Part shown: positions 24,344 to 54,694 of the stretch, one piece after another
Position numbering within the stretch: the stretch's first letter is position 1
Layout of the letters: each line of letters opens with the position of its first letter
NCBI GenBank assembly: GCA_018335275.1
Contig: JAGXKM010000001.1
Location: forward strand, 8,154 to 72,153
Direction of reading: 5' to 3'
Length of the DNA stretch: 64,000 nt
DNA from: Anaerolineales bacterium
Lineage (GTDB): Bacteria; Chloroflexota; Anaerolineae; Anaerolineales; UBA11858
Notes under the pieces: generated by a model
The model's input: only the letters and a program-made list of their open reading frames with translations
Database searches by the model: none
What the model was told of the DNA's origin: nothing
Made by a program: the position numbers and the translations under genes

Positions 24344-24505
24344 ATCAACTTTGCCATCCTCTGAATCAGCATAAAACAAAAAAGCGATAAAATAGAGATA
24401 TGATGCATGTAATTATAAGGCCAATTGAGGCTGAAATGGCTCCTTTTCACATGTGTTATACTCGATCCATATTCCGGTGAGAAGGATGAGAATCAGGTAC
24501 AAATT

Positions 24506-38975: not shown

Positions 38976-39065
38976 GAGATATTCCTGTACCTGGTTACCG
39001 GTATCTTTCGCTGTCCCTGTAAATCCGGCAAATCGTCATCTCTGAGATGCCGATCTCCCGGCTTT

Positions 39066-39100
39066 CCCCCTCCCGCTCCACAGCTGGAGCAAGGAGGGGG
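39066..39100 (-). other. GC-rich extended hairpin between the SBP and ATPase genes (candidate mRNA stabiliser or processing element)
   Basis: CCCCCTCC-c-GCTCCA-cagc-TGGAGC-aa-GGAGGGGG. No U-run follows on the minus strand. Confidence 0.5.
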
Positions 39101-39153
39101 AGGATTTCGGAGTTTCAGGCAGGGAAAAGCACTCCCCACCAGCAGTGAGAATC

Positions 39154-40158
39154 CTACTCACTCACGTCGGTCGAGATGGTCCCATCGATGATCCCTTGAA
39201 TGGTATCATCGGCCAGATCCTTGACATCTTCCGGCAGGTCGTATTCAGGATTGAACTCGATCACTTCGCCGCCGTTTTCCAGATTGATGGTGAAGGATTG
39301 ACCCCCGAGGGTTCCTTCGCCGATCAAATCAATGATCTCGTTGAGGACAACCTCCCAGCGGTAGATCTGGTTGGCCACCACCACATCGGGGGCCAATTCG
39401 GTCTGGGAAGATTGGGTGCCAAACCACATCGCATCGTTTTCCTCGGCCACGCCGATCGCGCCCACCACCATCTGGGCAGTTCCGGTCATCGCATCTGCGC
39501 CGGCTGCTACGTGGGTGTTGGCCGCTTCCGAGGCCAGGGCGACATCGGAGAAGGATCCAATGTAGTTTACGTTAACTTGAACGTCAGGATTGGTGGCTTC
39601 TGCGCCAGCTACAAAGCCGTCCACATACAGCTTGGCGTCCCCGGTTTCAATCGGGCCCACCACACCCAGCACGTCGCTCTCGGTTAAACTGGCAGCGATC
39701 ACGCCGTTGACATAACCGCCTTCATCTGAGGCAGCCTCGTAAGCAAAGATATTGTCAATGCCGAAGGTGTCCACTGTCGTCCCCCAGACAAAGCTGGTCT
39801 CCGGGAAATCAGGGGCGATTTCCTGCAACGAGCTGCCGTACTGGGAGCCATGGGCAATCACCAGATCGTAACCCTCAGCCGCATAGTCGCGGATAGCCGC
39901 CGCAGCGTCATCCACCACGAACATGCCATCCGAGTAATCAAAGGTCATAGCCTCTTCCCCGCCCATTTCCTCCTGAACGCGCAGCAGAGCGTCGTACATA
40001 CTCTGGCTAAAGGCCAGGTCGTTGATCGAACTGGGCATCACGACCGCGATTTGGAAAGGCCCTTCCTCTTCTTCGGGTGCTGCCGGCTGTGCCTGACAGG
40101 CACTGAGCAGCAGTCCAACTACCAATAAAACAATCAAAATCCATCGAAGCTTCTTCAT
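39154..40158 (-). CDS. BMP-family (PnrA-like) ABC substrate-binding lipoprotein, locus 2
   Basis: 334 aa with signal and lipobox LLLSAC; BMP/Med-type sequence. Confidence 0.8.
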   Translation of the reverse strand: MKKLRWILIVLLVVGLLLSACQAQPAAPEEEEGPFQIAVVMPSSINDLAFSQSMYDALLRVQEEMGGEEAMTFDYSDGMFVVDDAAAAIRDYAAEGYDLVIAHGSQYGSSLQEIAPDFPETSFVWGTTVDTFGIDNIFAYEAASDEGGYVNGVIAASLTESDVLGVVGPIETGDAKLYVDGFVAGAEATNPDVQVNVNYIGSFSDVALASEAANTHVAAGADAMTGTAQMVVGAIGVAEENDAMWFGTQSSQTELAPDVVVANQIYRWEVVLNEIIDLIGEGTLGGQSFTINLENGGEVIEFNPEYDLPEDVKDLADDTIQGIIDGTISTDVSE

Positions 40159-40239
40159 CCTTTACTCCTTACTAAATAATGGTCTCCATTTTTCTTCTGA
40201 GCACTGTCTTCGTTCTCGTTTCACCTCCAGCTTGAATGA

Positions 40240-41172
40240 TTATTCCTCTCGTTTGAATGGTTTTGTTAATGCCGATGGCGCTCGCACCCGGGATACCGAA
40301 ATAACCAGCACAAGAATAGTCAGGATGTAGGGCATCATGACCGCGATATCGGAGGGAATGGGAATGCCCAGTACCTGCACCCACAGCTGCAGCGAGTTAA
40401 CCAGGCTGAACAGCAGCGCCCCACCCAGCACCCCGAACGGGCGCCAGGCGCCGAAATAAACCAGGGCAACGGCGATAAAGCCCAGGCCGCTGGTCATATT
40501 TTGCTGAAATACGTTCAATAAAGCGATGGACAGGGAGGCTCCGGCAATTCCGGAAAGCGTTCCTCCGAGAATGATCGTCAGATAGCGTATCCTGGCCACG
40601 CTTACCCCCAGAGAGTCAGCTGCTTCGGGATTCTCACCCACCGCGCGGATTTTCAGCCCCAGGGTGGTTTTATTGAGAACAAACCAGGCCAGCGGCACCA
40701 GTGCAAAAGAAATATAAACCAGAATATTCTGCTGGAAGAAAATTTCACCCACAATCGGCAGATCGCTCAACACCGGTAGGTTAAATTTCGGAAATCCTTT
40801 CACAGTCTCCACCGTGCCAAGGACCCTCTGGAAGAGCAGGTCACTCAATCCCAGCCCAAACAAATAAAAGCCAATTCCGCTGATACCCTGCACCGCCTGT
40901 AAATTGACGGTGACAAAAGCCATTGCCAATCCCATCACTGCGCCCACAATCATGGCGCTTAGCACCCCCAGCCAGAGATTGCCGGTCTGGATGGCGACAT
41001 AAAAAGCAGTGAAAGCTCCTAAAAGCATCTGGCCTTCCACGCCGAGATTGAGCACCCCGCTGCGCTGACCAAAGGTTTCTCCTATAGCAGCATAGAGATA
41101 AGGCGTGGCCAGGCGAATGCCGGAAGCTAAAATACCCACCAGGACAGTCATGGAGAAGAGATCAGATATCAT
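40240..41172 (-). CDS. ABC transporter permease (BMP/nucleoside type), locus 2
   Basis: 310 aa, polytopic. There is a TGATG stop/start overlap with the upstream permease. Confidence 0.8.
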   Translation of the reverse strand: MISDLFSMTVLVGILASGIRLATPYLYAAIGETFGQRSGVLNLGVEGQMLLGAFTAFYVAIQTGNLWLGVLSAMIVGAVMGLAMAFVTVNLQAVQGISGIGFYLFGLGLSDLLFQRVLGTVETVKGFPKFNLPVLSDLPIVGEIFFQQNILVYISFALVPLAWFVLNKTTLGLKIRAVGENPEAADSLGVSVARIRYLTIILGGTLSGIAGASLSIALLNVFQQNMTSGLGFIAVALVYFGAWRPFGVLGGALLFSLVNSLQLWVQVLGIPIPSDIAVMMPYILTILVLVISVSRVRAPSALTKPFKREE

Positions 41173-42332
41173 CAGTCCACCTCCCCACCGTAGTGAGCAG
41201 CTTCGCTACCGTCACTCTCCCCCGGAGCACCCTCCTGCAAAGCCATTTCCGCGGCCAGACGGCGGCGCTGCCGTTTTCTGCGCCAGATTTCACTGCTGAC
41301 CACGAAGACCACAACCAGGCCGTTGAGTGCGATCACCAGCGCGGAGGGCACCTGCACAACCCGCTGCATCTTATTGGCCCCTACCAGCAGAGCGCCGAAG
41401 AGAATGGAAGCCGGGATGGTCCCCAGCGGATGCAGTTGGCCAAAAAGAGCAGCGACAATCCCGTTGAAGCCGGCCCTGCCGGTGAATCCGGACCCGGAGC
41501 CATCGGTGATCATCCGGTAGTTCACCCCGTATACCTGCATCACACCGGCCAGTCCGGCAAAGGCGCCGCTGAGCACCAGCGCCAAGACGATGTAATTCTT
41601 GACTTGTATGCCAGCGTAGGCGGAGGCATCCGGGTTCTGACCCACGGAGCGGATCCGGTACCCCCAGGTCGTTCTCCAGAGCAAAATATACACCAGCACC
41701 GCCAGGACCACAGCGATCAGTGCTCCCAGATGTAAGCGGGTGGGAATCCAGCGTGGAAGCCGGAAATTTTCCATCAGCCGGGCAGTCTGAGGGATTTTTG
41801 ATGCCAGTTCGGCCTGGGCTGGATCAATCATCGGGCCCCGGAGCAAAAAAGTCATCAGCTGCACGGCTATGGCATTCATCATCACCGTGCTGAGGATCTC
41901 ATTGACATTGAAATACGCTTTCAAGAGTCCTGGAATGCCGCCCCACAAAGCGCCGCCGGCGAAACCAGCCAGGAGCGCCAGGGGGACAACCAGCCAGCCT
42001 GGAGAGTCGACCATTCTCAGGCCCACCTGGGTGCCAATGATCGCCCCGACGATCATCTGCCCTTCTCCGCCAATATTGATCACATCTCCCCGGAAGGAAA
42101 TACAGATGCCCAAACCCACCAGAAGCAGCGGTGTGGCTTTGACCAGCGTTTCAGCCAGGGCGTTCTGGCTGCCAAAGGCGCCCTCCCAGAGAGCGGCGTA
42201 AGCTTCAATCGGATTGACATTGAGCAGCAGCAGCATCACCGCTCCCACGATCAATGCCGCCAGGGTGGCAAAAATCGGCAGGGCTATATCAATCAGTTTT
42301 GCGTACCAATTTTCTTGACTGGGTTTACTCAT
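41172..42332 (-). CDS. ABC transporter permease (BMP/nucleoside type), locus 2
   Basis: 386 aa, polytopic, with a charged C-terminal tail. Confidence 0.8.
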   Translation of the reverse strand: MSKPSQENWYAKLIDIALPIFATLAALIVGAVMLLLLNVNPIEAYAALWEGAFGSQNALAETLVKATPLLLVGLGICISFRGDVINIGGEGQMIVGAIIGTQVGLRMVDSPGWLVVPLALLAGFAGGALWGGIPGLLKAYFNVNEILSTVMMNAIAVQLMTFLLRGPMIDPAQAELASKIPQTARLMENFRLPRWIPTRLHLGALIAVVLAVLVYILLWRTTWGYRIRSVGQNPDASAYAGIQVKNYIVLALVLSGAFAGLAGVMQVYGVNYRMITDGSGSGFTGRAGFNGIVAALFGQLHPLGTIPASILFGALLVGANKMQRVVQVPSALVIALNGLVVVFVVSSEIWRRKRQRRRLAAEMALQEGAPGESDGSEAAHYGGEVD

Positions 42333-42617
42333 AAACAGTGACCTTTTCTATTTTTCATAAAATCACCTGCTTTGCGGATGGCCCTTGGATCACACCTGTT
42401 GTTTTTTTCACTCGTCAATTCTGACTGTAAAGCCAGCAAGACTTCCGGGCCAATCAGCGATATTATTTTGGTCATACCTCATCCTCACAGGGGTAAGGTT
42501 TTCCCAGCAATTTATCCTTGCTTCACAGCTGTTTGCAATTCACAGCGGTGGTACATCATCGATCACGACCAGAATTCTAGATCGGATTCCCCCAAGACAC
42601 ATTCCCAAAAGGAATCT

Positions 42618-43574
42618 TTAGTGTTTCTCCTCCCGGATGTACGGTATACCCAGGGCGGCCGGCGCCCCTAAACGTTTCCTGACCGCTTCTCCCCAGGTGA
42701 TGAGCACGAGGACAAGGATTGTGAAGAAATAGGGCATCATATTCAGGAATGAAGACGGGATCGTCGTTCCCGCAGCCTGAAGGCGGAACTGTAGGGCGTT
42801 GATTCCTCCAAAAAGCAAGGCTCCAACTGCTGCCCGCAATGGATCCCAAGTGGCAAAAATCACCAGAGCAATCGCGATCCAACCTCGGCCCCCTGTGATA
42901 TTTTGAGCCCACCCCTGCAGGTAGGCCATGGAGAGATGAGCACCCGCCACTCCCATTAAACACCCTCCGAAAATAGTGTACAGGTATCGGGAAAGTTTAA
43001 CAGGGACACCCAGGACGTCTGCCGCGGCTGGATTATCGCCCACAGCCCTCAAATGAAGCCCAGGCTGGGTCTTACGCAGGTAAAACCACATCAAGGGCAG
43101 CAGCAAGTACAGCGCATAAGCCAGCACGTCTTGATTGAACATCGAGGGACCAAGGATGGGGATGTCCTCCAAAACTGGAATAGGTATTCTCGGAAAGACC
43201 GGGCCTTGCAAACCAACCATGGTCTCCCCTCCGGGTCCAAGACGCTGGCCCATAAAACTTGCCAGGCCGGTGCCGAATAATGTCAGCGCCAGTCCTGTCA
43301 CAACCTGATCTGCCCGTAAAGTAATAGTTAAAAAGGCATGCGTAAAGGACATCATAGCGCCCACCAGCATGGCGACACCCAATCCTAACCAGGCGCTGTC
43401 ACTGTGAAAAGCCACCGCAAAGGCAGTGGCTGCGCCCGTCATCATGATCCCTTCCACGCCCAGGTTGAGAATGCCGGACCGTTCCGTGAATATCTCGCCC
43501 AGCGTGGCATACAGCAGAGATACACCGGCCCTGATCGTGATCGTTAACAGGGAAACAATCATCGCTTCATTCAT
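42618..43574 (-). CDS. ABC transporter permease, locus 1
   Basis: 318 aa, polytopic, and a paralogue of 40240-41172. It overlaps the upstream permease by 8 nt. Confidence 0.8.
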   Translation of the reverse strand: MNEAMIVSLLTITIRAGVSLLYATLGEIFTERSGILNLGVEGIMMTGAATAFAVAFHSDSAWLGLGVAMLVGAMMSFTHAFLTITLRADQVVTGLALTLFGTGLASFMGQRLGPGGETMVGLQGPVFPRIPIPVLEDIPILGPSMFNQDVLAYALYLLLPLMWFYLRKTQPGLHLRAVGDNPAAADVLGVPVKLSRYLYTIFGGCLMGVAGAHLSMAYLQGWAQNITGGRGWIAIALVIFATWDPLRAAVGALLFGGINALQFRLQAAGTTIPSSFLNMMPYFFTILVLVLITWGEAVRKRLGAPAALGIPYIREEKH

Positions 43575-44658
43575 TTAGTTCTCCTGCTTGCTTTTGTTTA
43601 CCAGATCTCAGGATTCGGATGCGGTAGTTGATAAATACCCAACCTCCTAAGACGAAAAAGAGGATGGCCCCCTGCAGAACCAAAGATACAGCAGCGGGGA
43701 TCCCCATCGCGACCTGCAGCTGGTCTCCACCCACCGTCAAAGCACCCATAAATGCGCCCACAAAGACCACACCCAAGGGATTGAGATTAGCCATCCAAGC
43801 CACGATGATAGCGGTAAATCCATATCCCACGGTCAGTCCCTGGTAAAGCCGCCGGGCAATCCCGGACACTTCCGCCATCCCCGCCAGCCCGGAAAGCGCG
43901 CCAGACAAAAGCATCACCAAGACCATATTCCTTTTGGCATCGATACCAGCGTACTTTGCTGCCCGGGGGTTTTCACCGATGAGCCGGATCTCATACCCCC
44001 ACTGGGACCGGTTCATGATCAGCCAGATGATGAACGCAGCCAGGACAGCGAATATAATTCCCAAATGGACCCGCCCCCATAACCTGGGAAGCAGGGCTTC
44101 CTGCGGGAAAGGTGCTGAACCTGGAAACCCATACCCTTCAGGGTCCCTCCAGGGACCCAGATAAAGGTATTCCACCAGGAGGATGGCGATGTAATTCATC
44201 ATCAAAGTGGTCAGAATTTCATTGACCTCCAGGTATGCTTTCAGGAGGGCGGGGATCAGAGCCCAAAGGGCTCCCGCAAGCATGCCCATCAGGATCATCA
44301 CGGGGATGGTCAGCGGGTCAGGTAGGGAATCACTCAAGAATAAAGCCACATAGGAGGCGCCAATACCACCCATGGCCAATTGACCCTCCGCCCCGATGTT
44401 CCAAAACAGCATCCGGAAGGCGATGGCCACAGCAAGCCCCGTCAATATCAAGGGGATGGCCTTGACAAGCGTTTCCGTCAGGGCGTACTGATCTCCTAAG
44501 GATCCGCTGACCATGACGCGGTATGCCTGAAGCGGGTTAATGCCAAAAGCCAATAATAATACGGCACCAAAGACAAGCGCTAATAAAAAAGAAGCGATCG
44601 GCACGATGACAACAGCCCAGCGGGCTTTTTCCAATCGGCGCTCCAGAACAATATTCAT
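43567..44658 (-). CDS. ABC transporter permease, locus 1
   Basis: 363 aa, polytopic, and a paralogue of 41172-42332. Confidence 0.8.
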   Translation of the reverse strand: MNIVLERRLEKARWAVVIVPIASFLLALVFGAVLLLAFGINPLQAYRVMVSGSLGDQYALTETLVKAIPLILTGLAVAIAFRMLFWNIGAEGQLAMGGIGASYVALFLSDSLPDPLTIPVMILMGMLAGALWALIPALLKAYLEVNEILTTLMMNYIAILLVEYLYLGPWRDPEGYGFPGSAPFPQEALLPRLWGRVHLGIIFAVLAAFIIWLIMNRSQWGYEIRLIGENPRAAKYAGIDAKRNMVLVMLLSGALSGLAGMAEVSGIARRLYQGLTVGYGFTAIIVAWMANLNPLGVVFVGAFMGALTVGGDQLQVAMGIPAAVSLVLQGAILFFVLGGWVFINYRIRILRSGKQKQAGELNE

Positions 44659-44661
44659 TGT

Positions 44662-46224
44662 TTACTGACCTCCGCTGCTTTGTGATATTTCGTCAGTTCG
44701 CCGTTCTCTTTTCTCTCCGGCCATCATCAATCCGATCTCTTCAACCGCGGCTTCTTCTCGATCTAACTCTCCCATAAATTCACCTTCATAAATCACAAAA
44801 ATCCGATCTGCAAGCTGCATGACTTCTTCCAGTTCTCCTGAGATGAGGAGAATGGCTGCCCCTTGATCGCGCTGTTCAAGCAATGTTTTCCGAACCGCCT
44901 CCGTGGCGCCAATATCCAACCCACGTGAAGGATTCACGGCCACCAACGCACCGCTGCTGGCATCGATTTCCCGGGCTAAAACCACTTTTTGCTGGTTTCC
45001 TCCGGAGAGCAAGCGGGCATTGGTTTTCACAGAAGGGGTGATTATATTGAAGGCATCAACCAGGCGTTCTGAAAAACCTTCCACGCGCTGGTAATCAATG
45101 AAGGGACCGTTGGAAATTGGGGGTTTGCGATACACTTTCATGACCAGGTTGTCGGAGATGGGTAAATTAGGGACCAAACCCCGTCCGATTCTATCCCCGG
45201 GGATGAAACTCAATCCCGCCTTGATTACCTGCCAGGGATTCTTCTTGGTGATATCCACCCCCCGGATCCAGATCCTTCCATCCTGCACACGCCGTAAACC
45301 GGTGATGGCTTCCGCCAATTCACGCTGGCCATTTCCGGCAACGCCTGCCACAGCGACGATCTCCCCGGCCCGCACTTCTAAGGAGACTCCCTTTAGAGCG
45401 GGGAGACCCTTATCACTCAGCGCTTTTAGATTTTCCACTTTCAAGACCACATCTCCCCGTTCGTGGGCCCGTTCCTGGAAATTAAATAAAACTTCCCTGC
45501 CAACCATCAGTTTTGCTAATTCGTTCTTGGTCGTCTGCGATGTAACCCGGGTGTCGATCATCTCGCCATCCCGCAACACGGAAACCCGATCTGAAAAATC
45601 CATCACCTCATGCAGCTTGTGAGTGATAAAGATAATAGTCTTGCCTTCCGAGGCCATTTTGTGGAGAATATCAATCAGTTGGTCCGATTCTTGAGGGGTA
45701 AGGACAGCGGTCGGCTCATCAAGGATCAATATTTTTGCGCCGCGATAGAGCAACTTCAAAATTTCCACCCGCTGCTGCTCTCCCACCGAAAGCTGCCAGA
45801 TGTACGCATCCAAATCCACATTCAAATGATAGCTGTCCGCAAGATCACGGAGCTCTTGCTTGACTTTCCTCTCATTAATCACCAGGCCGGTAGGATATAA
45901 GCCCAGGATGACATTTTCCGCTACGGTCAGGCTTTCCACAAGCATGAAATGCTGGTGAACCATGCCGATCCCCAATTCAATGGCATCCTTTGGAGATTGA
46001 ATGTTTACTGGTTCACCAAAAATACAAATCTGCCCTTCATCTTGTTGATATAAACCCGCAAGAACGTTCATCAGGGTGCTTTTTCCAGCCCCGTTTTCAC
46101 CTAACAAGGCATGCACATGGCCCCTTTCGACGGACAAATCAACCGCTTGATTAGCAACCACACCGGGAAATCGTTTGGTCACCCCCTGCATTTGGATCGC
46201 ATATGAATTTTCTGATTCTCCCAT
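44662..46224 (-). CDS. ABC transporter ATP-binding protein, duplicated ATPase, locus 1
   Basis: 520 aa with GENGAGKST, LSVGEQQRVEI and LSGGNQQKVVL. It is a paralogue of 37425-38975. Confidence 0.85.
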   Translation of the reverse strand: MGESENSYAIQMQGVTKRFPGVVANQAVDLSVERGHVHALLGENGAGKSTLMNVLAGLYQQDEGQICIFGEPVNIQSPKDAIELGIGMVHQHFMLVESLTVAENVILGLYPTGLVINERKVKQELRDLADSYHLNVDLDAYIWQLSVGEQQRVEILKLLYRGAKILILDEPTAVLTPQESDQLIDILHKMASEGKTIIFITHKLHEVMDFSDRVSVLRDGEMIDTRVTSQTTKNELAKLMVGREVLFNFQERAHERGDVVLKVENLKALSDKGLPALKGVSLEVRAGEIVAVAGVAGNGQRELAEAITGLRRVQDGRIWIRGVDITKKNPWQVIKAGLSFIPGDRIGRGLVPNLPISDNLVMKVYRKPPISNGPFIDYQRVEGFSERLVDAFNIITPSVKTNARLLSGGNQQKVVLAREIDASSGALVAVNPSRGLDIGATEAVRKTLLEQRDQGAAILLISGELEEVMQLADRIFVIYEGEFMGELDREEAAVEEIGLMMAGEKRERRTDEISQSSGGQ

Positions 46225-46306
46225 TTCTCCCTGCTTTTATACATCATAACGCCCTCCCCGCCCCTCCTTCGCAGAGGGACAGGGAGAGCGCAAGTCTTAG
46301 ATTCAA

Positions 46307-47398
46307 CTACTCAAGGGTGCCTTCCACACCTTCTACGAACCAATCCATAGAAAGCATATCCTCATCAGTCATGCATTCACCCTCGGCAACCATCTCGCTG
46401 CCATCCTGGCCGTTGATCGGGCCGCAGAAAACATCCCATTCGGTGTCAATGATCCGTGACCGTTCCTCGTCAACCTTCTCTGCCACGTCATCGGGAACTT
46501 TCGGGCTCAGATCCGCCAGCTTGACGACATCGCTTTCCAAGCCTCCCCAGAACTGGTGGGGTTCCCAGGTATCATCAAGTATTTCCTGAATGGTGTCCAC
46601 ATAGTATGTGCCCCAGTTCCAGACCGGGCTGGTGAGCACGGTGTCACCCACAAACTGAGCCATATCTGAGTCATAGCCTATGCTGAGAACACCAGCTTCC
46701 TTGGCCGCTTTCTGGGGTTCTGTGGTGTCCTGGTGCTGAGCGATCATGTCGACGCCTTCATCCAGAAGGGCCTGAGCCGCTTCGCGCTCTTTCACTGGGT
46801 CGTACCAGGTATTGGTCCAGACCACATTCACCGTGGCTTCAGGGTTAACTTCCCGCACACCCAGCGTGAAGGCATTGATGCCGCGTAGTACCTCAGGAAT
46901 GGGGAAAGCTGCCACATAACCAATCTGGTTGTTTTCCGTCATCCTGCCGGCTACCAAACCGGATAGGTACCGGGGTTGGTACATGCGCCCAAAGTATGTC
47001 GCCATGTTGTCATTGGTCTTGTACCCCGAGCAGTGTTCGAAAATGACCTCAGGATTGTCCTGGGCCACCGTCAGTGTGGGGTCCATGTATCCAAAGCTGG
47101 TTGTGAACACCACGTCCGCACCCTGATTGACCACATCGCGAATGGATTTTTCCGCATCAGGTCCTTCCGGCACATCAGGAACGGTAGAGGTATTCACTTG
47201 ATCTCCAAGCTCCTCTTCCACCATCAACCGGCCCTGCTCATGCTCATAGGTCCAGCCGAGGTCGCCGGGTTGGCCAATATAGATAAAGGCCACCTGCAGT
47301 TCATCCTCTTCTGCGCCGGGCCCAGCCTGGCAGCCTGTGGCTACTAACACAGCCACAAGTAACAGGCTCAGCAATATCCATATTTTCTTGCTTTCCAT
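46307..47398 (-). CDS. BMP-family ABC substrate-binding lipoprotein, locus 1
   Basis: 363 aa with signal and lipobox LVATGC; BMP-type sequence. Confidence 0.8.
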   Translation of the reverse strand: MESKKIWILLSLLLVAVLVATGCQAGPGAEEDELQVAFIYIGQPGDLGWTYEHEQGRLMVEEELGDQVNTSTVPDVPEGPDAEKSIRDVVNQGADVVFTTSFGYMDPTLTVAQDNPEVIFEHCSGYKTNDNMATYFGRMYQPRYLSGLVAGRMTENNQIGYVAAFPIPEVLRGINAFTLGVREVNPEATVNVVWTNTWYDPVKEREAAQALLDEGVDMIAQHQDTTEPQKAAKEAGVLSIGYDSDMAQFVGDTVLTSPVWNWGTYYVDTIQEILDDTWEPHQFWGGLESDVVKLADLSPKVPDDVAEKVDEERSRIIDTEWDVFCGPINGQDGSEMVAEGECMTDEDMLSMDWFVEGVEGTLE

Positions 47399-47584: not shown

Positions 47585-48541
47585 TTAAGGGACGATATGG
47601 GTGCCGGTTTCTCCCTGTAAAGCTCGGCCGATGTTTTCCGGATTCGTGACAATGGCCTTTTTGCCGCCGCTCTCCAGGAAATGCACAATGGCTTTGATCT
47701 TGGGCTCCATGGAACCTTTCGCAAAGTGCGTCCCCTCTTCGAGATATGCTTTGGCCTCCGCAACGGTCATCTGATCGACCCATTCCTGATCGGGTTTCCC
47801 GAAATTCAGGGCAACCTTTTCAACATCCGTTGAGATCAGATACAAATCCGCATCGATTTCATTGGCCAACATGCCAGACGCGAAATCCTTATCGATCACA
47901 GCTGCGGTCCCCCGCACCTCGTCGCCATCCCGAATGACCGGGATACCGCCGCCGCCCACAGTGATGGTGATCGTCCCCGACTCAATCATGGCTTTCACGG
48001 CTTCTAGCTCCATGATTTCCTGGGGAAGGGGTGAAGGCACAACCCGCCGCCACCCGCGCCCAGCGTCTTCCACGACATCCCATCCATCTTCTTCCTTTCG
48101 GCGCTGGGCTTCCTTCTGCTCCATAAAACTGCCAATAGGCTTGGATGGTTCCTGAAAAGCGGGGTCATTTGGGTCCACCCGAACCTGGGTGATCACCGTG
48201 GCCGCTATCTTGTCAATCCCGCGTTTCCTGAGTTCGTTCTGTATATTCTGCTGTAAGGCATATCCAATCGCGCCCTGGCTGTCTGAGCCGCAGACATCTA
48301 AAGGCAGCTCATGCATGCCTTCCACCCTGTGGGCAATTTCCGAGCGGCGGAGGATGAACCCCACCTGCGGTCCGTTCCCATGCCCGATGGCGATATCCCA
48401 CCCCTGCTCGATCATGTTTACCAGGTGCTTGGCGGTTTCTTTTGCCGCCAGGTACTGGTCCTCTACGGTCTGGTGATCTTTATCTCTGATTAACGAGTTG
48501 CCGCCAATGGCAACAACTGCAACTTTTCTTTCCTCACTCAT
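47585..48541 (-). CDS. arcC: Carbamate kinase
   Basis: 318 aa with VVAIGGNSL, GHGNGPQVG and GGGGIPV. Confidence 0.9.
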   Translation of the reverse strand: MSEERKVAVVAIGGNSLIRDKDHQTVEDQYLAAKETAKHLVNMIEQGWDIAIGHGNGPQVGFILRRSEIAHRVEGMHELPLDVCGSDSQGAIGYALQQNIQNELRKRGIDKIAATVITQVRVDPNDPAFQEPSKPIGSFMEQKEAQRRKEEDGWDVVEDAGRGWRRVVPSPLPQEIMELEAVKAMIESGTITITVGGGGIPVIRDGDEVRGTAAVIDKDFASGMLANEIDADLYLISTDVEKVALNFGKPDQEWVDQMTVAEAKAYLEEGTHFAKGSMEPKIKAIVHFLESGGKKAIVTNPENIGRALQGETGTHIVP

Positions 48542-48553
48542 TCTCTCTCCTTC

Positions 48554-49534
48554 TCAGCGCATGGTCAAAGCCATAACAGCTTTCTGGGCATGCAGACGAT
48601 TTTCCGCTTGATCATAGACAACAGATTGAGGTCCATCCATGACTTCACTCGTGACTTCGACATCACGGTCTGCGGGGAGGGGATGCATATAGATAGCATC
48701 TTTATCCGCCAGCGCCATTTTCCGGGCATCTGTGATCCAATCTTTGTATTGATCCTGAATGCGTTTGCCTTCTTCCTGGTCCCGCGTGGTCAGCAAAGGA
48801 CCCCATGATTTTGCATAGACAATGTCCGCACCCTCAAAACCGGCTTCCATATCATCCACAACTTCAAATTTACTGTCAAATTTCTCTGCCTGTTCCCGGG
48901 CCTGGTCCATGATCTCAGGCATGAGCTCAAACTCCGGAGGATGAGCTAAGGTTACATCCAGTCCAAAGCGGGGCATCTGCAGGATCAATGATTGGGGAAC
49001 GGAAATCGGCTTCAGATAGGAGGAAGCGTAAGCCCAGGAGACGACGATCTTCTTTCCCCGCAGATCCTTGCCTTTCTTCTCCTGAATGGTCATGATGTCG
49101 GCCAGGCATTGATGAGGATGGTAAAACTCATCCTGCATGTTAAGCACGGGGACACGGGAAGCGGATGCGACGTTGTTGAGATAATTATTGCCGATCCCCC
49201 AATCCACATGGCGGATGGCGATCCCGTCAAAATACCGGCCCAGGATCTCGCCCAGTTCTTTCTCCGTGTCTCCATGGGAGACCTGCGTGGTGCGGCTCTC
49301 AATGAAAGCAGCGTGCCCGCCTAATTGGGCCATGCCGGACTCGAAAGATGACCTCGTGCGTGTGCTGGAAAAGAAGAACAACATGCCCAATGTCTTGTTG
49401 TCCAGATAGGCATGAGGCTGACCCAGGGCCCGTTTTTTCTTCAGGTCCCAAGCCACATCCAACACCGTTTCCACTTCTTCTCTGCTGAAATCAAGATCGC
49501 TGATCAAATCCCGATTTCTCAAATCAGTAATCAT
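48554..49534 (-). CDS. Carbamoyltransferase of the AOTCase/SOTCase/YgeW-like (knotted) type; substrate unknown
   Basis: 326 aa with SSTRTRSSFE, HPHQCLAD, VVSWAYASSYLKPISVPQS, YAKSWGP and MHPLPADRDVEV (HPLP rather than the OTCase HCLP). Confidence 0.6.
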   Translation of the reverse strand: MITDLRNRDLISDLDFSREEVETVLDVAWDLKKKRALGQPHAYLDNKTLGMLFFFSSTRTRSSFESGMAQLGGHAAFIESRTTQVSHGDTEKELGEILGRYFDGIAIRHVDWGIGNNYLNNVASASRVPVLNMQDEFYHPHQCLADIMTIQEKKGKDLRGKKIVVSWAYASSYLKPISVPQSLILQMPRFGLDVTLAHPPEFELMPEIMDQAREQAEKFDSKFEVVDDMEAGFEGADIVYAKSWGPLLTTRDQEEGKRIQDQYKDWITDARKMALADKDAIYMHPLPADRDVEVTSEVMDGPQSVVYDQAENRLHAQKAVMALTMR

Positions 49535-49567
49535 ATTTCCTACTCCTCTTTCTAGTCAAACTATCCC

Positions 49568-49605
49568 GGGGCCAGAGCCATTAATCAGGTCCTCAGCTCT
49601 GGCCC
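49568..49605 (-). other. Stem-loop between the two carbamoyltransferase genes
   Basis: GGGCCAGAGC, a 17-nt loop, then GCTCTGGCCC; no U-run follows. Confidence 0.45.
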
Positions 49606-49632
49606 TCTATTGGTACGCTCGGATTACGCCGT

Positions 49633-50586
49633 CTACTCTTTTGCGCCCAGCACCAGGGCGATAAGCGCCATGCGCATGACTACGCCGTTGAACCCTTCTT
49701 CCCAATAGCGGGACCAACGGGTATGGTCCACGTCAGGGGGAATCTCATCCATGCGGGGCAGGGAGTGGAGCAAGACAGCATCTGACTTCGCCTTGGTTTC
49801 CAGCAGTTCCTTGGTGATCTTGAATTCAGGCGGAGTCTGGGGTACTTCACCCTTCCGCTCATCGCGGGACTTGGTGTAATCGGGCTGCACCACGGGTTCC
49901 ACGAGGATGACATCCGCGTCAGCGATCACCTCACGGACATCATCGCCTTCGGTGAAATCCAGGCTGCCCGCTTTGAAATCTTCCCGGTACTCATCGGGCA
50001 GGGACATATCCTCAGGAGAAATCAGGGTCAAAGGGCAGTCAAACTGGGTCAAAGCATGACCCAGGGAGTGCATGGTGCGCATGCGCATATCCCCGACAGC
50101 CACCCAGTTCAAACCGTCAATGGTCCCCTTCTCCTTCAAGATTGTGTAGAGATCGGTCAATATCTGCGTGGGGTGTTCGCCCCAGCCGTCTCCCCCATTG
50201 ATGACCGGCACACTGACCCATTTGGCCGCTTCATGAGGGGCACCCTTCTGGAAATGGCGGGTGACAATCACATCGCCGTAATGCTCCAACATCTTGAAGG
50301 TGTCTTTGATGGACTCCTGGTAGAAATCGCCCGCCCTGGTCACTGTGGCATCCGCGAACCCCGTCACTTTCCCACCTAAACGGAGCATGGCGGATTCATG
50401 GGCCAGCCGAGTGCGCGTTGACGGTTGATAGAAAGCCGTCACCAGCGTCTTCTCTTTGAGCAAATCCACATTCTTGCGGTTATGAGCGATGGGGGCCAGT
50501 TCATCCGCGACTTCGAAAACTCGCAAAAATTCGCGGCGTTCAAAATCCTTTAACGATAATATGTCACGTCCTGAAAAACTTCTCAT
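49633..50586 (-). CDS. Aspartate-carbamoyltransferase-like enzyme with divergent substrate loops
   Basis: 317 aa with QPSTRTRLAHE, HPTQILTD, RTMHS and HSLPRMDEI. The 80s-loop reads TRAGDFYQES instead of S-x-x-KGE-[ST], and the RVQKER region reads PVVQPD. Confidence 0.6.
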   Translation of the reverse strand: MRSFSGRDILSLKDFERREFLRVFEVADELAPIAHNRKNVDLLKEKTLVTAFYQPSTRTRLAHESAMLRLGGKVTGFADATVTRAGDFYQESIKDTFKMLEHYGDVIVTRHFQKGAPHEAAKWVSVPVINGGDGWGEHPTQILTDLYTILKEKGTIDGLNWVAVGDMRMRTMHSLGHALTQFDCPLTLISPEDMSLPDEYREDFKAGSLDFTEGDDVREVIADADVILVEPVVQPDYTKSRDERKGEVPQTPPEFKITKELLETKAKSDAVLLHSLPRMDEIPPDVDHTRWSRYWEEGFNGVVMRMALIALVLGAKE

Positions 50587-50638: not shown

Positions 50639-51364
50639 TTAAATTCCATTTCCCACGCGTCGGACGATGTGAAAATGAAAGTAACCCGGTAAAAAGTAGC
50701 TGTAAGAATAATCAACCACACGTCCCCTCGTAGAACATAACTCCGAACGGAAAACTAAAAGAGGAGCATGCCGCTGGATATCCAGCGCACTGGCAATTTC
50801 TGAAGACGCGCCGGCGGCGTTGATTTCCGTGCGGGAGCTGGCCAGAAGAGGCTGATCTTTCTTTAATAACAAATCCAGAATCGAACCCGTAAAATCCAAC
50901 GTGATCTCTGCTGCCGATAAGATATCCATGGGTAAGATATCAATCAGATAGGCAACAGGACGGTTCTCTGCCATGATAACCCGTGACACATGGGTGACTT
51001 CTGCTCCAGGTTCCAAACCGAGCGCTTCCCTTGCTTCCTCAGACGCAGGTTTTTGTTCCACGATCAGTTCGCCCATGGAAACGGGAAGCCCAATTCTCTC
51101 TGCCAGGGTTTCCAGACTGACCAAATGCTCCAGCCCGCTTTCAAAAACCTGTGTAGGGTGGATCACAAATGTGCCCACCCCCTGCTTCCTGCGCAGCAAT
51201 CCTCGGGTTTCAAAAGTTCTCATCACTTCCCTGAGCGTTGCGCGGGACACGTCAAGTTGATCCGCGAGTTTGGGTTCCGATGGCAGCCGTTCCCCGGTCT
51301 CCATGTCAGCTATGATCACACTTAAGCGTTCCTTGACGGTTTCTGATACTCCTTGTCCGCTCAT
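50639..51364 (-). CDS. GntR-family transcriptional regulator, HutC/UTRA subtype
   Basis: 241 aa with an N-terminal wHTH (LPSEPKLADQLDVSRATLREVMRTFETRGLL) and a UTRA-length C-terminal domain. There is an ATGA overlap with the adenine deaminase stop. Confidence 0.8.
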   Translation of the reverse strand: MSGQGVSETVKERLSVIIADMETGERLPSEPKLADQLDVSRATLREVMRTFETRGLLRRKQGVGTFVIHPTQVFESGLEHLVSLETLAERIGLPVSMGELIVEQKPASEEAREALGLEPGAEVTHVSRVIMAENRPVAYLIDILPMDILSAAEITLDFTGSILDLLLKKDQPLLASSRTEINAAGASSEIASALDIQRHAPLLVFRSELCSTRGRVVDYSYSYFLPGYFHFHIVRRVGNGI

Positions 51365-53178
51365 AATTTCACTTCTTCAATTGCTGGAATGAGTTCAAAT
51401 TTCTCTGCATCAACCAATCCAAGATCCGAGATCCGTAAAGCGGGAATGACCACTAACGCCAGAAGACTGAGCTGCATATTTGGATTTTTAATTGTGCACC
51501 CGCACTGCCTGAATCCCTCTAACACCGAGGCAGCTTCTTTAGCTACCCGTTCAGCCCGTTTATCAGACATCAAGCCAGCGATCGGCAAAGGGACCTTTCC
51601 GATCACAGCATCCTCTTTGATCACGACCTGTCCCCCCTGCATCTCAACCAGTTCATTGGCTGCGCGCGCCATCTGTGCTTCATCCGTGCCCACCACAATC
51701 ATGTGATGGGAATCATGGGCAACCGTGCTGGCGACAGCGCATCCCGCTTCGAGCTCAAATCCCTGAACCAGTGCCACCTGCACATCCCCCGTGGCATTGT
51801 GCCTTTCTACCAGGGCGATCTTCGCCAAATCACGTTCCAAATCCACCTTGATCTCGCCGTCCTCGGCCTGAACGGAAACCTGTACATGCTTGGTGGGGGC
51901 CTGACCTTCCATGACGCCTATGACATGAGCCACCAGATTATCTCCAGCGGTTCCCTCCGGGACCCGCAAACGGAAATCCTCAGCCTGAAGCGACCTTTTG
52001 ACATTCACGGAGTGTGTCGCCCAGCGTGGATATTCCACCTCGGGCAAATCAACCACCAAGCTCCCGCTCTCCGCGATCACATGGCCCTTGGCCACCACGG
52101 TCTGAACATGGAAATCGTCCAAATCCGGGACCAGGAGGATATCCGCAAAGCGTCCGGGGGCAATCTGACCCATATCCTTGGCCACACCAAAATGTTCCGC
52201 TGTGTTCAAAGTCGCCATCTGGATCACAGTAAGAGGGTCCACACCCAAATCGATGGTATGCCGGACCACGCGATCCATGTGTCCTTCGGTGACCAGGGTT
52301 TCAGAGTGAGTGTCATCCGTACAGAGCAGGAAATGCCGGGAGTCCAGACCTTCCTCAGTGACAGCCTTAATCTGAGCAGCGACATCCAACCAGCCGGACC
52401 CATAACGCAGCATGGCTTTCATGCCCTGTCGAACACGCTTCAATGCATCCACCTTCCGCGTCCCTTCATGATCATCTTCAGGGCCACCTGCCGCATACCC
52501 ATGAAATGGTAAGCCAAGATCAGGAGAAGCATAATGCCCTCCGATCACTTTCCCCGCATGCCGGGTGGCAGCCATTTCAGCGTGCATTTTTCGATCATTT
52601 TGGAAGACGCCGGGAAAATTCATCATCTCTCCCAATCCGATGATCCGCTCCCATGCCATGGCCTCTTTAACGTCTTCCGGTCCAATGCGAGCACCCGGCG
52701 TTTCCAATCCAGGGGCAGAGGGAACGCAAGAGGGAACCTGCACCCAAACATGAATGGGCTGTTTTTCCGCCTCTTCTGCCATCAGGCGGACACCTTTGAG
52801 CCCAAACACATTAGCAATTTCATGAGGATCGACAAACATGCCCGTCGTCCCCTGAGGTGCTACCGCCCGGACGAACTCTGTGATGGTAACCATGCCCGAT
52901 TCAATATGCATATGAGCATCCAAGAGGCCAGGGACCAGATATTGACCTTCCGCCCGGATGACCTCCGTTTCATCCCCCACAGCATGAGACGCATCCTCCC
53001 CCACAAAAGCGATTCGCTTTCCAGCAACGGCCACATCTATTCCGGGCAATATCTCTCCCGATTGTACGTTCACCCACTGCCCTCCCGTGATCACCAGGTC
53101 AGCGGGGGTTCTTCCCATCGATACGTTTACCAGCTTCTGTGTTCGTTCACGGATGTCATCTACGTGCATTCTACACAC
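51361..53178 (-). CDS. ade: Adenine deaminase
   Basis: 605 aa with PGLLDAHMHIESGM; the two-domain Ade architecture and length fit. Confidence 0.85.
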   Translation of the reverse strand: MCRMHVDDIRERTQKLVNVSMGRTPADLVITGGQWVNVQSGEILPGIDVAVAGKRIAFVGEDASHAVGDETEVIRAEGQYLVPGLLDAHMHIESGMVTITEFVRAVAPQGTTGMFVDPHEIANVFGLKGVRLMAEEAEKQPIHVWVQVPSCVPSAPGLETPGARIGPEDVKEAMAWERIIGLGEMMNFPGVFQNDRKMHAEMAATRHAGKVIGGHYASPDLGLPFHGYAAGGPEDDHEGTRKVDALKRVRQGMKAMLRYGSGWLDVAAQIKAVTEEGLDSRHFLLCTDDTHSETLVTEGHMDRVVRHTIDLGVDPLTVIQMATLNTAEHFGVAKDMGQIAPGRFADILLVPDLDDFHVQTVVAKGHVIAESGSLVVDLPEVEYPRWATHSVNVKRSLQAEDFRLRVPEGTAGDNLVAHVIGVMEGQAPTKHVQVSVQAEDGEIKVDLERDLAKIALVERHNATGDVQVALVQGFELEAGCAVASTVAHDSHHMIVVGTDEAQMARAANELVEMQGGQVVIKEDAVIGKVPLPIAGLMSDKRAERVAKEAASVLEGFRQCGCTIKNPNMQLSLLALVVIPALRISDLGLVDAEKFELIPAIEEVKL

Positions 53179-53218: not shown

Positions 53219-54631
53219 TCATTGGACCAACTGCTGCGCTAATTGGTTGTGAGTTTCTATCAACTGGTCGACATCTGCGGTGACCAGGGCACCTTCCTTG
53301 ACCACAAATTTTCCACCCACAACGTTGTAAGCGACTCCCCGCGGTGCACAAAAAGGCAGGGCTGCAACCGGATCGTGCAGCGCACCCGCATAACTAACCT
53401 GGCTCAAATCCAGGGCTATAAAATCGCCGGCCTTCCCCTCTTCCAACGATCCGATGTCAGAACGTCCCAGCACGGCTGCTCCCCCGCGGGTTCCCATCTC
53501 CAGCGCTTGCCGCGCAGACATGATCGGGAGGTGTTCTTCATTTGAGCGGGAAGCGCCTAACATCCCCGCTCTCAACCGAGCTAAAAGCATCGCCTGCCGG
53601 ACTTCTTCCAGCATATGTGAACTGTCATTGCTGGCTGAACCATCCACCCCCACACCCACATCAATCCCAGCCTGCAACATATCCAGGATGGGGGCCGCTC
53701 CCGAAGCCAGCCGCATATTCGAACTCGGGCAATGGGCAACCCCACAGTGATTTTCCGCATACACATCCAGCTCCTGCTCATTGACGTGAACGGAATGAGC
53801 GAACCAGACATCGGGTCCGATCCAATCCACCTCTTCCATATAAGCTACAGGGCGGTGGCCAAATTGCTCCAGGCAAAAATCGATTTCATCCTCTGTCTCC
53901 GACAGGTGGGTATGCAGACGCACCCCATAGTCACGGGCTAACGCTGCGCTTTCCCTCATCAGATCACCCGTGACGCTGAAAGGTGAACACGGCGCCAGCA
54001 CAATTTGCACAAAGGAACCTGGTTCAGGATCATGATAGGCTTCAATCACCCGCTGCGAATCGCGGAGAATTTCATCTTCACCCTCCACCACACTGTCCGG
54101 GGGAAGTCCTCCTTTGCTCTCCCCCAGACTCATCGAACCCCGAGAAGCATGCAATCGCAAACCGATCTCTTGGGCAGCTTGAATCTCATCATCCAAGCGA
54201 GAGCCGTTAGGAAATAAGTAGAGATGATCCGAAGCCGTCGTGCAGCCCGATAAAGCCAACTCAGCCAGGGCAGTCTTCGTGGATACCCTGATATGCTCCG
54301 GTCCCATTCGCGCCCAGATGGGATAAAGTGTTTTCAACCAGTGAAAAAGATTTACATCTTGAGCATCCGGGATCACCCTGGTTAACGTCTGATAAAAATG
54401 GTGATGCGTGTTCACCAGCCCAGGGAGAACAATATGCCCGGAAAGATCAAGGATCTCCTCTGCCTGACCAGGCAAAGAGTCAGTGGGTCCCACCGCTTCA
54501 ATGAACCCGTCCTTAATAAAAATACCACCGCCTTTGATTTCGCGGCGGTGGTCATCCATCGTGACTAAAATATCTGCGTTCTTGATCAATAAAGTGCCCA
54601 TTAGATTCATCCACTTGTTAATCCTGAACAA
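53219..54631 (-). CDS. Amidohydrolase of the guanine/8-oxoguanine deaminase (SsnA/AtzB-like) group. The true start may be at 54610 or 54601.
   Basis: 470 aa with LIKNADILVTMDD, GLVNTHHHFYQTLTR, HLSET and GVDGSASND. Confidence 0.75.
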   Translation of the reverse strand: MFRINKWMNLMGTLLIKNADILVTMDDHRREIKGGGIFIKDGFIEAVGPTDSLPGQAEEILDLSGHIVLPGLVNTHHHFYQTLTRVIPDAQDVNLFHWLKTLYPIWARMGPEHIRVSTKTALAELALSGCTTASDHLYLFPNGSRLDDEIQAAQEIGLRLHASRGSMSLGESKGGLPPDSVVEGEDEILRDSQRVIEAYHDPEPGSFVQIVLAPCSPFSVTGDLMRESAALARDYGVRLHTHLSETEDEIDFCLEQFGHRPVAYMEEVDWIGPDVWFAHSVHVNEQELDVYAENHCGVAHCPSSNMRLASGAAPILDMLQAGIDVGVGVDGSASNDSSHMLEEVRQAMLLARLRAGMLGASRSNEEHLPIMSARQALEMGTRGGAAVLGRSDIGSLEEGKAGDFIALDLSQVSYAGALHDPVAALPFCAPRGVAYNVVGGKFVVKEGALVTADVDQLIETHNQLAQQLVQ

Positions 54632-54635
54632 CCCG

Positions 54636-54649
54636 ATTGTCTGACAATT
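54636..54649 (-). promoter_or_regulatory. Operator copy 1 (ATTGTCTGACAATT), at or near the predicted +1
   Basis: Palindrome ATTGTC-N-GACAAT, an exact 14-nt repeat of copy 2. Confidence 0.55.
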
Positions 54650-54652
54650 GAA

Positions 54653-54681
54653 AGTGTATCAAAAAGGGTCTGGGTTGTCAA
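54653..54681 (-). promoter_or_regulatory. Sigma70-type promoter of the deaminase-gntR-carbamoyltransferase operon
   Basis: The minus strand reads TTGACA (54676-54681), a 17-nt spacer, then TACACT (54653-54658). Confidence 0.55.
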
Positions 54682-54694
54682 TTGTCTGACAATT
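54680..54694 (-). promoter_or_regulatory. Operator copy 2 (AATTGTCTGACAATT), overlapping the -35
   Basis: Perfect 7-1-7 palindrome AATTGTC-T-GACAATT; its end overlaps the TTGACA -35 hexamer. Confidence 0.55.

Follow-up and report, generated by a model that had tools for sequence, protein, structure and literature searches.

Which compounds would be cleaved by two dissimilar transcarbamylases whose genes stand directly upstream of a single carbamate kinase gene? The question is raised by a 64,000-nucleotide stretch of the genome of an Anaerolineales bacterium (GenBank assembly GCA_018335275.1, contig JAGXKM010000001.1), hereafter the window, whose list of open reading frames (ORFs) holds three adjacent minus-strand genes at exactly the positions given by an earlier sequence-only reading: two transcarbamylases, here called T1 (49633-50586) and T2 (48554-49534), and a carbamate kinase, CK (47585-48541), which starts 12 nt after the T2 stop, as that reading had also noted. 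It took the trio for a catabolic module that turns nucleobase-derived N-carbamoyl compounds into carbamoyl phosphate and then ATP. All the context that we computed supports such a module, and it is from this context that we infer the substrates. T1 lacks the residues with which aspartate is bound, T2 lacks the ornithine motif and the kinase resembles YqeA of E. coli; purine deaminases head the operon under a conserved putative GntR operator; and related genomes have the trio physically linked to genes for YgeY, SsnA, a HyuA-type hydantoinase, an F420-dependent reductase and xanthine dehydrogenase (XDH).

YgeW and YqeA, a transcarbamylase and a kinase of the E. coli purine cluster, had been described in the same reading as an orphan pair, a view that is now outdated: YgeW was shown in 2025 to phosphorolyse 2,3-diureidopropionate (bioRxiv 10.1101/2025.04.24.650524; PMC12507026), so that the candidate substrates can be narrowed. 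The E. coli cluster converts urate via 2,8-dioxopurine to 2,3-diureidopropionate (bioRxiv 10.1101/2025.04.24.650524; PMC12507026), from which YgeW and YqeA make ATP (bioRxiv 10.1101/2025.04.24.650524), while YgeY removes the other ureido group by hydrolysis and diaminopropionate is deaminated by YgeX (bioRxiv 10.1101/2025.04.24.650524; PMC12507026). SsnA clusters of Chloroflexota are reported to carry an F420-dependent luciferase-family reductase in place of YgfK (PMC12507026). On balance, we consider it probable that T1, T2 and CK form the energy-conserving end of purine degradation in Anaerolineae, as part of the Chloroflexota version of this reductive urate pathway.

Active-site residues of T1, T2 and the kinase

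Pfam recognizes the OTCace_N and OTCace domains in both transcarbamylases (E values between 1e-22 and 1e-43) and an AA_kinase domain in the third gene. CK exceeds the equivalog cut-offs for carbamate kinase (383.5 against 358.25 bits for TIGR00746 and 400.8 against 266 for NF009007) and is 48% identical to E. coli YqeA. The motifs that had been picked out by eye in T1 and T2 are all present. In T1 they comprise the carbamoyl-phosphate motifs STRTR (residues 56-60), HPTQ (138-141) and HSLPR (274-278), the third of which contains the variant HSLP (274-277) instead of HPLP, as well as two departures from aspartate transcarbamylase (ATCase): the 80s loop reads TRAGDFYQES (83-92) where ATCases have S-x-x-KGE-T, and EPVVQPDY (230-237) occupies the position of RxQxER. 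The arginine and glutamine of the latter motif, R229 and Q231 in the 240s loop, bind the beta-carboxylate of aspartate in ATCase.

An alignment of T1 with E. coli PyrB and 92 full-length representatives, retrieved by searching 1.8 billion cluster representatives, gives a consistent picture of what is kept and what is replaced. The PyrB residues S52-T-R-T-R56, R105, H134-P-T-Q137 and R167, the last of which contacts the alpha-carboxylate, correspond to S56-T-R-T-R60, R110, H138-P-T-Q141 and R170 of T1. The aspartate-binding residues K84, R229 and Q231, in contrast, are exchanged for Y89, P231 and V233, and E50, S80 and P266 for Q54, R84 and S275. These replacements are invariant or nearly so among 33 family members (P231 is invariant and V233 the consensus), and the 240s loop exceeds by about eight residues that of PyrB, to which T1 is 35% identical. 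Of the two ATCase models, TIGR00670 scores T1 above its cut-off (250.4 against 236.95 bits) and NF002032 below (219.5 against 263); the closest solved structure is the ATCase of Pyrococcus abyssi (237 bits). Many diverse proteins in the alignment have an 80s loop of the form T-RAGD-x-Y-x-E-[ST] and no RxQxER, and a rough neighbour-joining tree (without bootstrap) clusters T1 with them, apart from the canonical ATCases. Within this group the T1 subfamily is tight, its full-length representatives being 65-69% identical to one another and at most 52% identical to others. Judged by their motifs, the proteins with the RAGD loop and without RxQ are those that Barba et al. (2013; PMC4016543) called pseudo-ATCases. 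On the same grounds T1 is a predicted pseudo-ATCase rather than a PyrB, with an apparently intact carbamoyl-phosphate site and a replaced site for the aspartate side chain.

T2 (326 residues) carries HPLP (284-287), SWAYASSYLKPISVPQS (166-182) and YAKSWGP (240-246). The proline-rich loop is a published signature of knotted transcarbamylases (PMC4581275), and the earlier assignment of T2 to the knotted clade stands as far as these loop signatures go, with the knot itself presumed from them. The protein misses the cut-offs of all curated transcarbamylase families: it reaches 265.5 of 288 bits for N-acetylornithine transcarbamylase (AOTCase; NF003384), 245.3 of 280.85 and 260.6 of 306 for ornithine transcarbamylase (OTCase; TIGR00658 and NF001986), 214 of 500 for putrescine transcarbamylase (PTCase) and 184.3 of 500 for the YgeW-type model TIGR03316. 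Pairwise, it is 35% identical to E. coli YgeW (E 4e-58) and 28% to ArgI, and its closest solved structure is the OTCase of P. furiosus. When aligned with YgeW, Xanthomonas AOTCase, Pyrococcus OTCase and ArgI, the proline-rich loop SWAYASSYLKPISVPQS of T2 matches TWAYSPSYGKPLSVPQG of YgeW (common form WAY-x-x-SY-x-KP-x-SVPQ), the 80s loop is YgeW-like (Q84 corresponds to YgeW Q98), and the 240s loop begins with the same K-S-W. The alignment shows in T2 neither the DxxxSMG motif of the OTCase 240s loop nor HCLP, with YAKSWGP and HPLP present, nor the nine-residue insertion with a tryptophan that lengthens the 80s loop of AOTCase; the 120s loop is 4-6 residues longer than that of OTCase and shorter than that of AOTCase. 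T2 thus appears to be a short YgeW-like transcarbamylase.

Conservation, purine neighbours and probable operators

A genome collection with one genome per species was scanned with T1 as the query, which returned a relative in at least 583 species-level genomes, and the neighbourhoods of the best 80 were analysed. The usual order is GntR-T1-T2-CK: of these 80 loci, 75 have T2 after T1, 71 a GntR gene ahead of T1 and 67 CK after T2, and contig ends account for most of the shortfall. T1 and T2, each with hundreds of close relatives at 78-100% identity, are as well conserved as GyrB where the comparison is possible. Since the arrangement is kept in hundreds of genomes, the trio reflects more than chance. 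The few relatives with a name are labelled as aspartate, ornithine or N-acetylornithine carbamoyltransferases and come mostly from bins of Anaerolineae and other Chloroflexota. All of the best 80 loci are labelled Chloroflexota/Anaerolineae except for two, from bins labelled Heimdallarchaeota (L015, 122 kb) and Eisenbacteria (L056, 2.0 Mb), in which T1, T2 and CK are 77-87% identical to their Anaerolineae counterparts, owing either to wrong bin labels or to a recent transfer. Among the 160 loci fetched in this study we found a single additional transcarbamylase, a partial OTCase-like gene from another organism (L101). In about 12-20 related loci (L006, L031, L057, L058, L061 and others) small genes of the four-helix-bundle 23S_rRNA_IVP family have been inserted into the T1-T2 or the T2-CK spacer, and in the window the 98-nt spacer between T1 and T2 contains a perfect 10-bp inverted repeat (GGGCCAGAGC, 17 nt, GCTCTGGCCC; 49569-49605, minus strand) that is not followed by a T-tract.

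In the window, the trio stands in a minus-strand series in which an 8-oxoguanine deaminase, an adenine deaminase and a GntR regulator come before it. The first gene (53219-54631; real start codon probably slightly downstream of the listed TTG) encodes an amidohydrolase of the 8-oxoguanine deaminase family (NF006055, 677.6 bits against a cut-off of 532), and a gene of this family lies upstream of T1 in 41-43 of the 80 loci. It is followed by the adenine deaminase (51361-53178; TIGR01178, 510 against 472.5 bits, with an Adenine_deam_C domain), found in 44-45 loci, and by a HutC-type transcription regulator with the Pfam domains GntR and UTRA (50639-51364), the gene that adjoins T1 upstream in the 71 loci mentioned above. 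T1, T2 and CK are each preceded by an AGGAG-type ribosome-binding site. The scanned ORFs of the window (150 amino acids or longer) include no pyrI, pyrD, pyrC or arg biosynthesis gene, in agreement with the sequence-only reading, and the sole relative among them is a D-hydantoinase/dihydropyrimidinase at 31285-32706, a member of the pyrC superfamily. In some related loci the adenine deaminase is replaced, between amidohydrolase and GntR, by a FAD-dependent oxidoreductase of the DAO family or a 4Fe-4S protein (1853-3220 of L032; 7929-9128 of L045); the amidohydrolase of L045 is itself a relative of SsnA, 41% identical to the SsnA of L079.

Some purine-linked neighbour accompanies T1 in 68 of the 80 loci, and at least one of YgeY, SsnA, HyuA and XDH in 28. 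In 19 loci the gene immediately before T1 encodes a YgeY-family hydrolase (TIGR03526, 443-450 bits against 321.5); XDH subunits occur in 7-9. One locus, L079, holds the full set for reductive urate degradation: XDH, a threonine-synthase-like (ThrC-like) enzyme, an F420-dependent oxidoreductase of the luciferase-like monooxygenase (LLM) family, YgeY, T1, T2 and CK are followed, after CK, by SsnA (NF005540, 523 against 444 bits), the FAD/FeS and Mo subunits of XDH and a hydantoinase. Its YgeY, SsnA, HyuA and YqeA counterparts are 40%, 36%, 40% and 51% identical to the E. coli proteins, and all these genes except the reductase and the pyridoxal-phosphate (PLP) enzyme are homologues of the E. coli ygeW-xdhD cluster. 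L079 thereby fits the published description of Chloroflexota SsnA clusters with an F420 reductase.

Further links come from the genes downstream of CK. On the minus strand of the window these include a ThrC-like PLP enzyme (36179-37444; 180 against 167 bits for the threonine synthase model), a GT2 glycosyltransferase (35228-36160), a CysK-like PLP enzyme of 486 residues (33710-35170), a 189-residue protein without a Pfam family (32922-33491) and the HyuA-type D-hydantoinase (31285-32706; TIGR02033, 506 against 393 bits), which is 37% identical to E. coli HyuA and stays below the allantoinase cut-off (TIGR03178, 237 against 358 bits). The string from ThrC-like enzyme to hydantoinase directly follows CK, and is probably co-transcribed with it, in L062, L070, L072 and L082, where the transporter that intervenes in the window is absent and the spacers are overlapping or near zero, and the ThrC-like gene is present in 28 of the 80 loci. 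A second set of 80 neighbourhoods, obtained by a metagenome scan seeded with the SsnA of L079, has the F420 reductase after SsnA in 28 loci. One of them (L166) reads ABC transporter, ThrC-like enzyme, glycosyltransferase, CysK-like enzyme, the 189-residue protein, hydantoinase, SsnA, LLM reductase and XDH, which links the downstream genes of the window to SsnA; two others (L143 and L122) have the same string minus the hydantoinase, and L099 combines T2, CK, SsnA and adenine deaminase. Part of the reductive urate set is thus found in L099, L045, L166 and 28 of the 80 T1 loci, and the window has the HyuA-type hydantoinase only. Taken together, three independent architectures tie T1, T2 and CK to the SsnA pathway.

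Upstream of the 8-oxoguanine deaminase gene lies a promoter-like site (54635-54694, minus strand; TTGACA at 54681, a 17-nt spacer and TACACT ending at 54653). A perfect palindrome, AATTGTCAGACAATT, spotted by eye, stands on either side of it (54680-54694 and 54635-54649). Allowing up to three mismatches, the palindrome matches eight times against 1.7 expected, and the two best matches are those at 54635-54694. Its core TTGTCNGACAA is present in 64 of the 80 related loci (L007-L086), with 125 sites against 21 in shuffled sequences; it is usually paired, about 45 bp apart, and stands at the start of the operon or, if the deaminases are absent, just before GntR. The two AATTGTCAGACAATT copies are probable operators of the GntR repressor. 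This pattern suggests a small GntR regulon and fits a GntR-family repressor that governs the deaminases and the transcarbamylase module together. Sites with the core are sometimes also seen before downstream genes. The HutC-type consensus GTNTANAC was matched at chance level only and was discarded as the operator.

A proposed route and its alternatives

The route that we propose would begin with the uptake of purines by the nucleoside-type ABC transporter encoded downstream of CK and with deamination, of 8-oxoguanine to urate and of adenine to hypoxanthine. XDH-type enzymes, the F420-dependent reductase, SsnA and the HyuA-type hydantoinase, of which the window encodes only the last, would then lead to 2,3-diureidopropionate. 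T2, with its YgeW-like substrate loops, most likely takes the YgeW role and would transfer one ureido group onto phosphate to give carbamoyl phosphate. T1 keeps the carbamoyl-phosphate site and the alpha-carboxylate arginine and has a rebuilt side-chain pocket; it may phosphorolyse the other ureido group, most plausibly that at the 2- (alpha-) position, of either the diureido compound or 3-amino-2-ureidopropionate; the order of the two steps is given here tentatively. CK would convert each carbamoyl phosphate, with ADP, to ATP, CO2 and ammonia, so that a purine could yield up to two ATP, whereas E. coli, which loses the second ureido group to hydrolysis by YgeY, obtains one. The operon would be governed by the GntR/UTRA repressor through the paired TTGTCNGACAA operators. 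That T1 and T2 each take one ureido group, making the reductive urate pathway fully phosphorolytic and doubling its ATP yield relative to E. coli, is an attractive possibility which we nevertheless hold to be somewhat less than even.

Several observations weigh against this route. SsnA, YgeY, the F420 reductase and XDH are absent from the 64-kb window, and T1/T2 and SsnA lie within 10 kb of each other in only 2 of the 80 T1 loci and 2 of the 80 SsnA loci; given such rare proximity, the link is for most genomes a chain of partial overlaps. Because YgeY occurs together with T1 in 19 loci, T1 is not a simple replacement of YgeY. The long 240s loop of T1 contains the invariant K239 and R244 and the nearly invariant R241, and its 80s loop contains R84; with these conserved basic residues the substrate of T1 may yet have an anionic side chain. 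The intermediates of the pathway are (R)-configured, whereas the substrate of ATCase is L-aspartate. Curated models place T2 outside the YgeW orthologues (NF005538, 195.9 against 453 bits), and both AlphaFold models, built on shallow alignments of 78-99% identity, are of low confidence, with a mean pLDDT of 67.5 for T1 (below 50 in the N-domain) and of 56.7, with a pTM of 0.52, for T2. The two 2025 papers, moreover, conflict on which ureido group YgeW removes (bioRxiv 10.1101/2025.04.24.650524; PMC12507026).

Some of the same evidence would also suit a narrower scheme, which we regard as unlikely but worth keeping in view, where T2 alone takes part in the reductive urate pathway, as the counterpart of YgeW, and T1 acts on a different ureido compound, with CK common to both. 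Allantoate, N-carbamoyl-D-amino acids released by the hydantoinase and N-carbamoyl-beta-alanine are examples of what T1 might then cleave, the first of them by analogy with the ureidoglycine carbamoyltransferase (UGTCase) Rxyl_2847 of Rubrobacter xylanophilus, a pseudo-ATCase that phosphorolyses allantoate (PMC4016543). With YgeY beside T1 in those 19 loci the second ureido group may be handled already, and the 240s loops differ strongly among the pseudo-ATCase subfamilies, which suggests different substrates. T1 and T2 are, however, inseparable, both being present in 75 of the 80 loci and always in the order T1-T2; T1 has HSLP with PVV/VQP rather than the HPLA with AIA/SIA of the UGTCase subgroup; and uricase, allantoinase and dihydropyrimidine dehydrogenase are missing from the conserved and selected neighbours scanned with Pfam and NCBIfam, a set that leaves rarer gene clusters unannotated. 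An oxidative allantoin route would assign T1 as a UGTCase (allantoate to ureidoglycine and carbamoyl phosphate) and T2 as an oxamate carbamoyltransferase (oxalurate to oxamate and carbamoyl phosphate). Allantoate too has two ureido groups, and T1 and the Rubrobacter enzyme fall into one broad pseudo-ATCase assemblage (PMC4016543), yet we find this route very improbable: the cyclic amidohydrolase of the cluster is of the hydantoinase type, above its own cut-off and below that for allantoinase in the scores given above; the scanned neighbours include no uricase, HIU hydrolase, OHCU decarboxylase or ureidoglycolate dehydrogenase; the oxamate transcarbamylase of E. coli is the unrelated AllFGH enzyme (PMC11326118); and SsnA, YgeY and the F420 reductase indicate the reductive route.

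That same amidohydrolase exceeds the dihydropyrimidinase/D-hydantoinase model, and a catabolic beta-alanine transcarbamylase has been postulated (PMC4581275), both of which speak for reductive pyrimidine degradation, in which dihydropyrimidinase opens dihydrouracil and dihydrothymine and T1 and T2 act on N-carbamoyl-beta-alanine and N-carbamoyl-beta-aminoisobutyrate. Dihydropyrimidine dehydrogenase, cytosine deaminase and a uracil transporter were not seen among the scanned neighbours, though, and the specific neighbours (adenine deaminase, 8-oxoguanine deaminase, XDH, SsnA and YgeY) are all purine-linked, so that we give a pyrimidine route little credence. The public labels, finally, of aspartate and of ornithine or N-acetylornithine carbamoyltransferase could simply be right, T1 being PyrB and T2 ArgF or ArgF', with an anabolic kinase that feeds both, as reported for Pyrococcus. 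The score of T1 above the TIGR00670 cut-off (250 against 237 bits) and the closest solved structures, P. abyssi ATCase and P. furiosus OTCase, agree with these labels. Against them count the loss of K84, R229 and Q231 from T1 and the lack in T2 of DxxxSMG, HCLP and the AOTCase 80s-loop insertion, the position of T2 under all OTCase and AOTCase cut-offs and of T1 under NF002032, and the absence of pyr and arg neighbours among the scanned window ORFs; furthermore, purine deaminases head the operon, the GntR/UTRA regulator is of a catabolic type, and YgeY, SsnA and XDH occur in related loci. Residue losses, scores and the catabolic purine context together disfavour a biosynthetic role, which we consider extremely improbable, and leave the reductive urate pathway as our preferred reading of the trio.

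Flanking genes and relation to known systems

Between CK and the ThrC-like gene, the window encodes on the minus strand two gene sets for nucleoside-type ABC transporters of the BMP/PnrA family (37425-47398), identified by domain scans. They stand back to back in an unusual order: a binding protein (46307-47398), an ATPase (44662-46224), four permeases (43567-44658, 42618-43574, 41172-42332 and 40240-41172), a second binding protein (39154-40158) and a second ATPase (37425-38975). One set of this type follows CK in about 34-38 of the 80 loci. In 12 loci CK and the transporter are separated by a gene for a protein of about 677 residues that matches no Pfam or NCBIfam model (for instance at 15604-17637 of L085) and is absent from the window; Pfam likewise has no match for the 189-residue protein or for a protein of 340 residues. 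The ThrC-like enzyme scores above the threonine synthase model and yet sits where YgeX would be expected; the string also places a glycosyltransferase inside a purine operon. The window hydantoinase gene is followed by folP and htpG.

Farther away, a plus-strand gene at 59311-61296 encodes a 661-residue amidohydrolase of the superfamily of TRZ/ATZ enzymes, guanine deaminase and SsnA, which falls below all cut-offs (best 465 against 540 bits), has about 220 extra C-terminal residues and is kept beside gyrB, on the opposite strand, in the closest relatives. The window also encodes a 2030-residue bacterial alpha-2-macroglobulin-like protein (17597-23689, minus strand) and two further proteins of nucleobase-linked kind, resembling nucleoside 2-deoxyribosyltransferase (23918-24379) and LOG/lysine decarboxylase (9713-10270).

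The logic of a transcarbamylase coupled to carbamate kinase, the reductive urate pathway and the pseudo-ATCases are already known, as is the occurrence of one pseudo-ATCase beside a ygeW homologue: the group was named in 2013, and a member of its subgroup 2 in Nocardioides JS614 adjoins a ygeW homologue, xdhABC and hyuA (PMC4016543). Our literature search turned up no work on the Anaerolineae genes, none on pseudo-ATCases later than 2013, and no account of one kinase being served by a constant combination of pseudo-ATCase and minimal YgeW-like enzyme, of the spread of this combination across Anaerolineae or of its tie to the reductive urate pathway in its F420 form. The matter has practical reach, as T1 is labelled an ATCase and T2 an ornithine or N-acetylornithine carbamoyltransferase in at least 583 species-level genomes, and metabolic reconstructions of Anaerolineae credit the two with biosynthetic steps that are almost certainly not theirs and miss a route of purine fermentation. 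If both ureido groups are phosphorolysed, two ATP would be gained by substrate-level phosphorylation, a yield of consequence to fermenters that grow slowly on necromass in sediments, digesters and activated sludge. For the pseudo-ATCases, among which the HSLP subgroups have lacked a function since 2013, the proposal puts forward a definite candidate substrate and, if true, would provide the first function for an HSLP-type member, as a 2-ureido (N-alpha-carbamoyl-diaminopropionate) carbamoyltransferase. With two regiospecific enzymes paired by nature, the conflict between the 2025 papers over the ureido group removed by YgeW-type enzymes could also become easier to settle.

The trio shares with the arginine and agmatine deiminase pathways, in which OTCase or PTCase is combined with ArcC, the phosphorolysis of a ureido compound followed by the formation of ATP by carbamate kinase; it differs in having two transcarbamylases instead of one, another source of the ureido group and a T2 without the specificity motifs of OTCase or PTCase. 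PyrB of the ATC II type (P. abyssi, 1ML4) resembles T1 in fold family, length, carbamoyl-phosphate ligands and R167, whereas T1 lacks K84, R229 and Q231, has glutamine for E50 and serine for P266, extends the 240s loop by about eight residues and stands in a catabolic context. With the pseudo-ATCases of 2013 T1 has in common STRT and HPTQ, the loss of RxQ and a place beside carbamate kinase and purine genes, and it shares the HSLP variant with subgroups 2 and 3. Subgroup 1, which contains the UGTCase, is distinguished from it by HPLA with AIA, AIS or SIA in place of HSLP with PVV, and no enzyme of the allantoinase class was found near T1 (TIGR03178, 237 against 358 bits).

The closest parallel is the E. 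coli cluster. There, too, a transcarbamylase gene lies directly upstream of a YqeA-type kinase, T2 has the proline-rich loop, the 80s loop and the start of the 240s loop of YgeW, and related loci add YgeY (40% identical), SsnA (36%), HyuA (37-40%) and XDH. T2 is nevertheless a smaller enzyme than YgeW (326 against 396 residues), without its N- and C-terminal helices, its 120s insert and its 19-residue 240s insert, and has HPLP where YgeW has HCLP. The Anaerolineae loci depart from the E. coli arrangement in that a second transcarbamylase, T1, is always present, an F420-dependent LLM reductase stands for YgfK, a ThrC-like PLP enzyme occupies the place of YgeX and a GntR repressor takes that of the sigma-54 activator YgeV.

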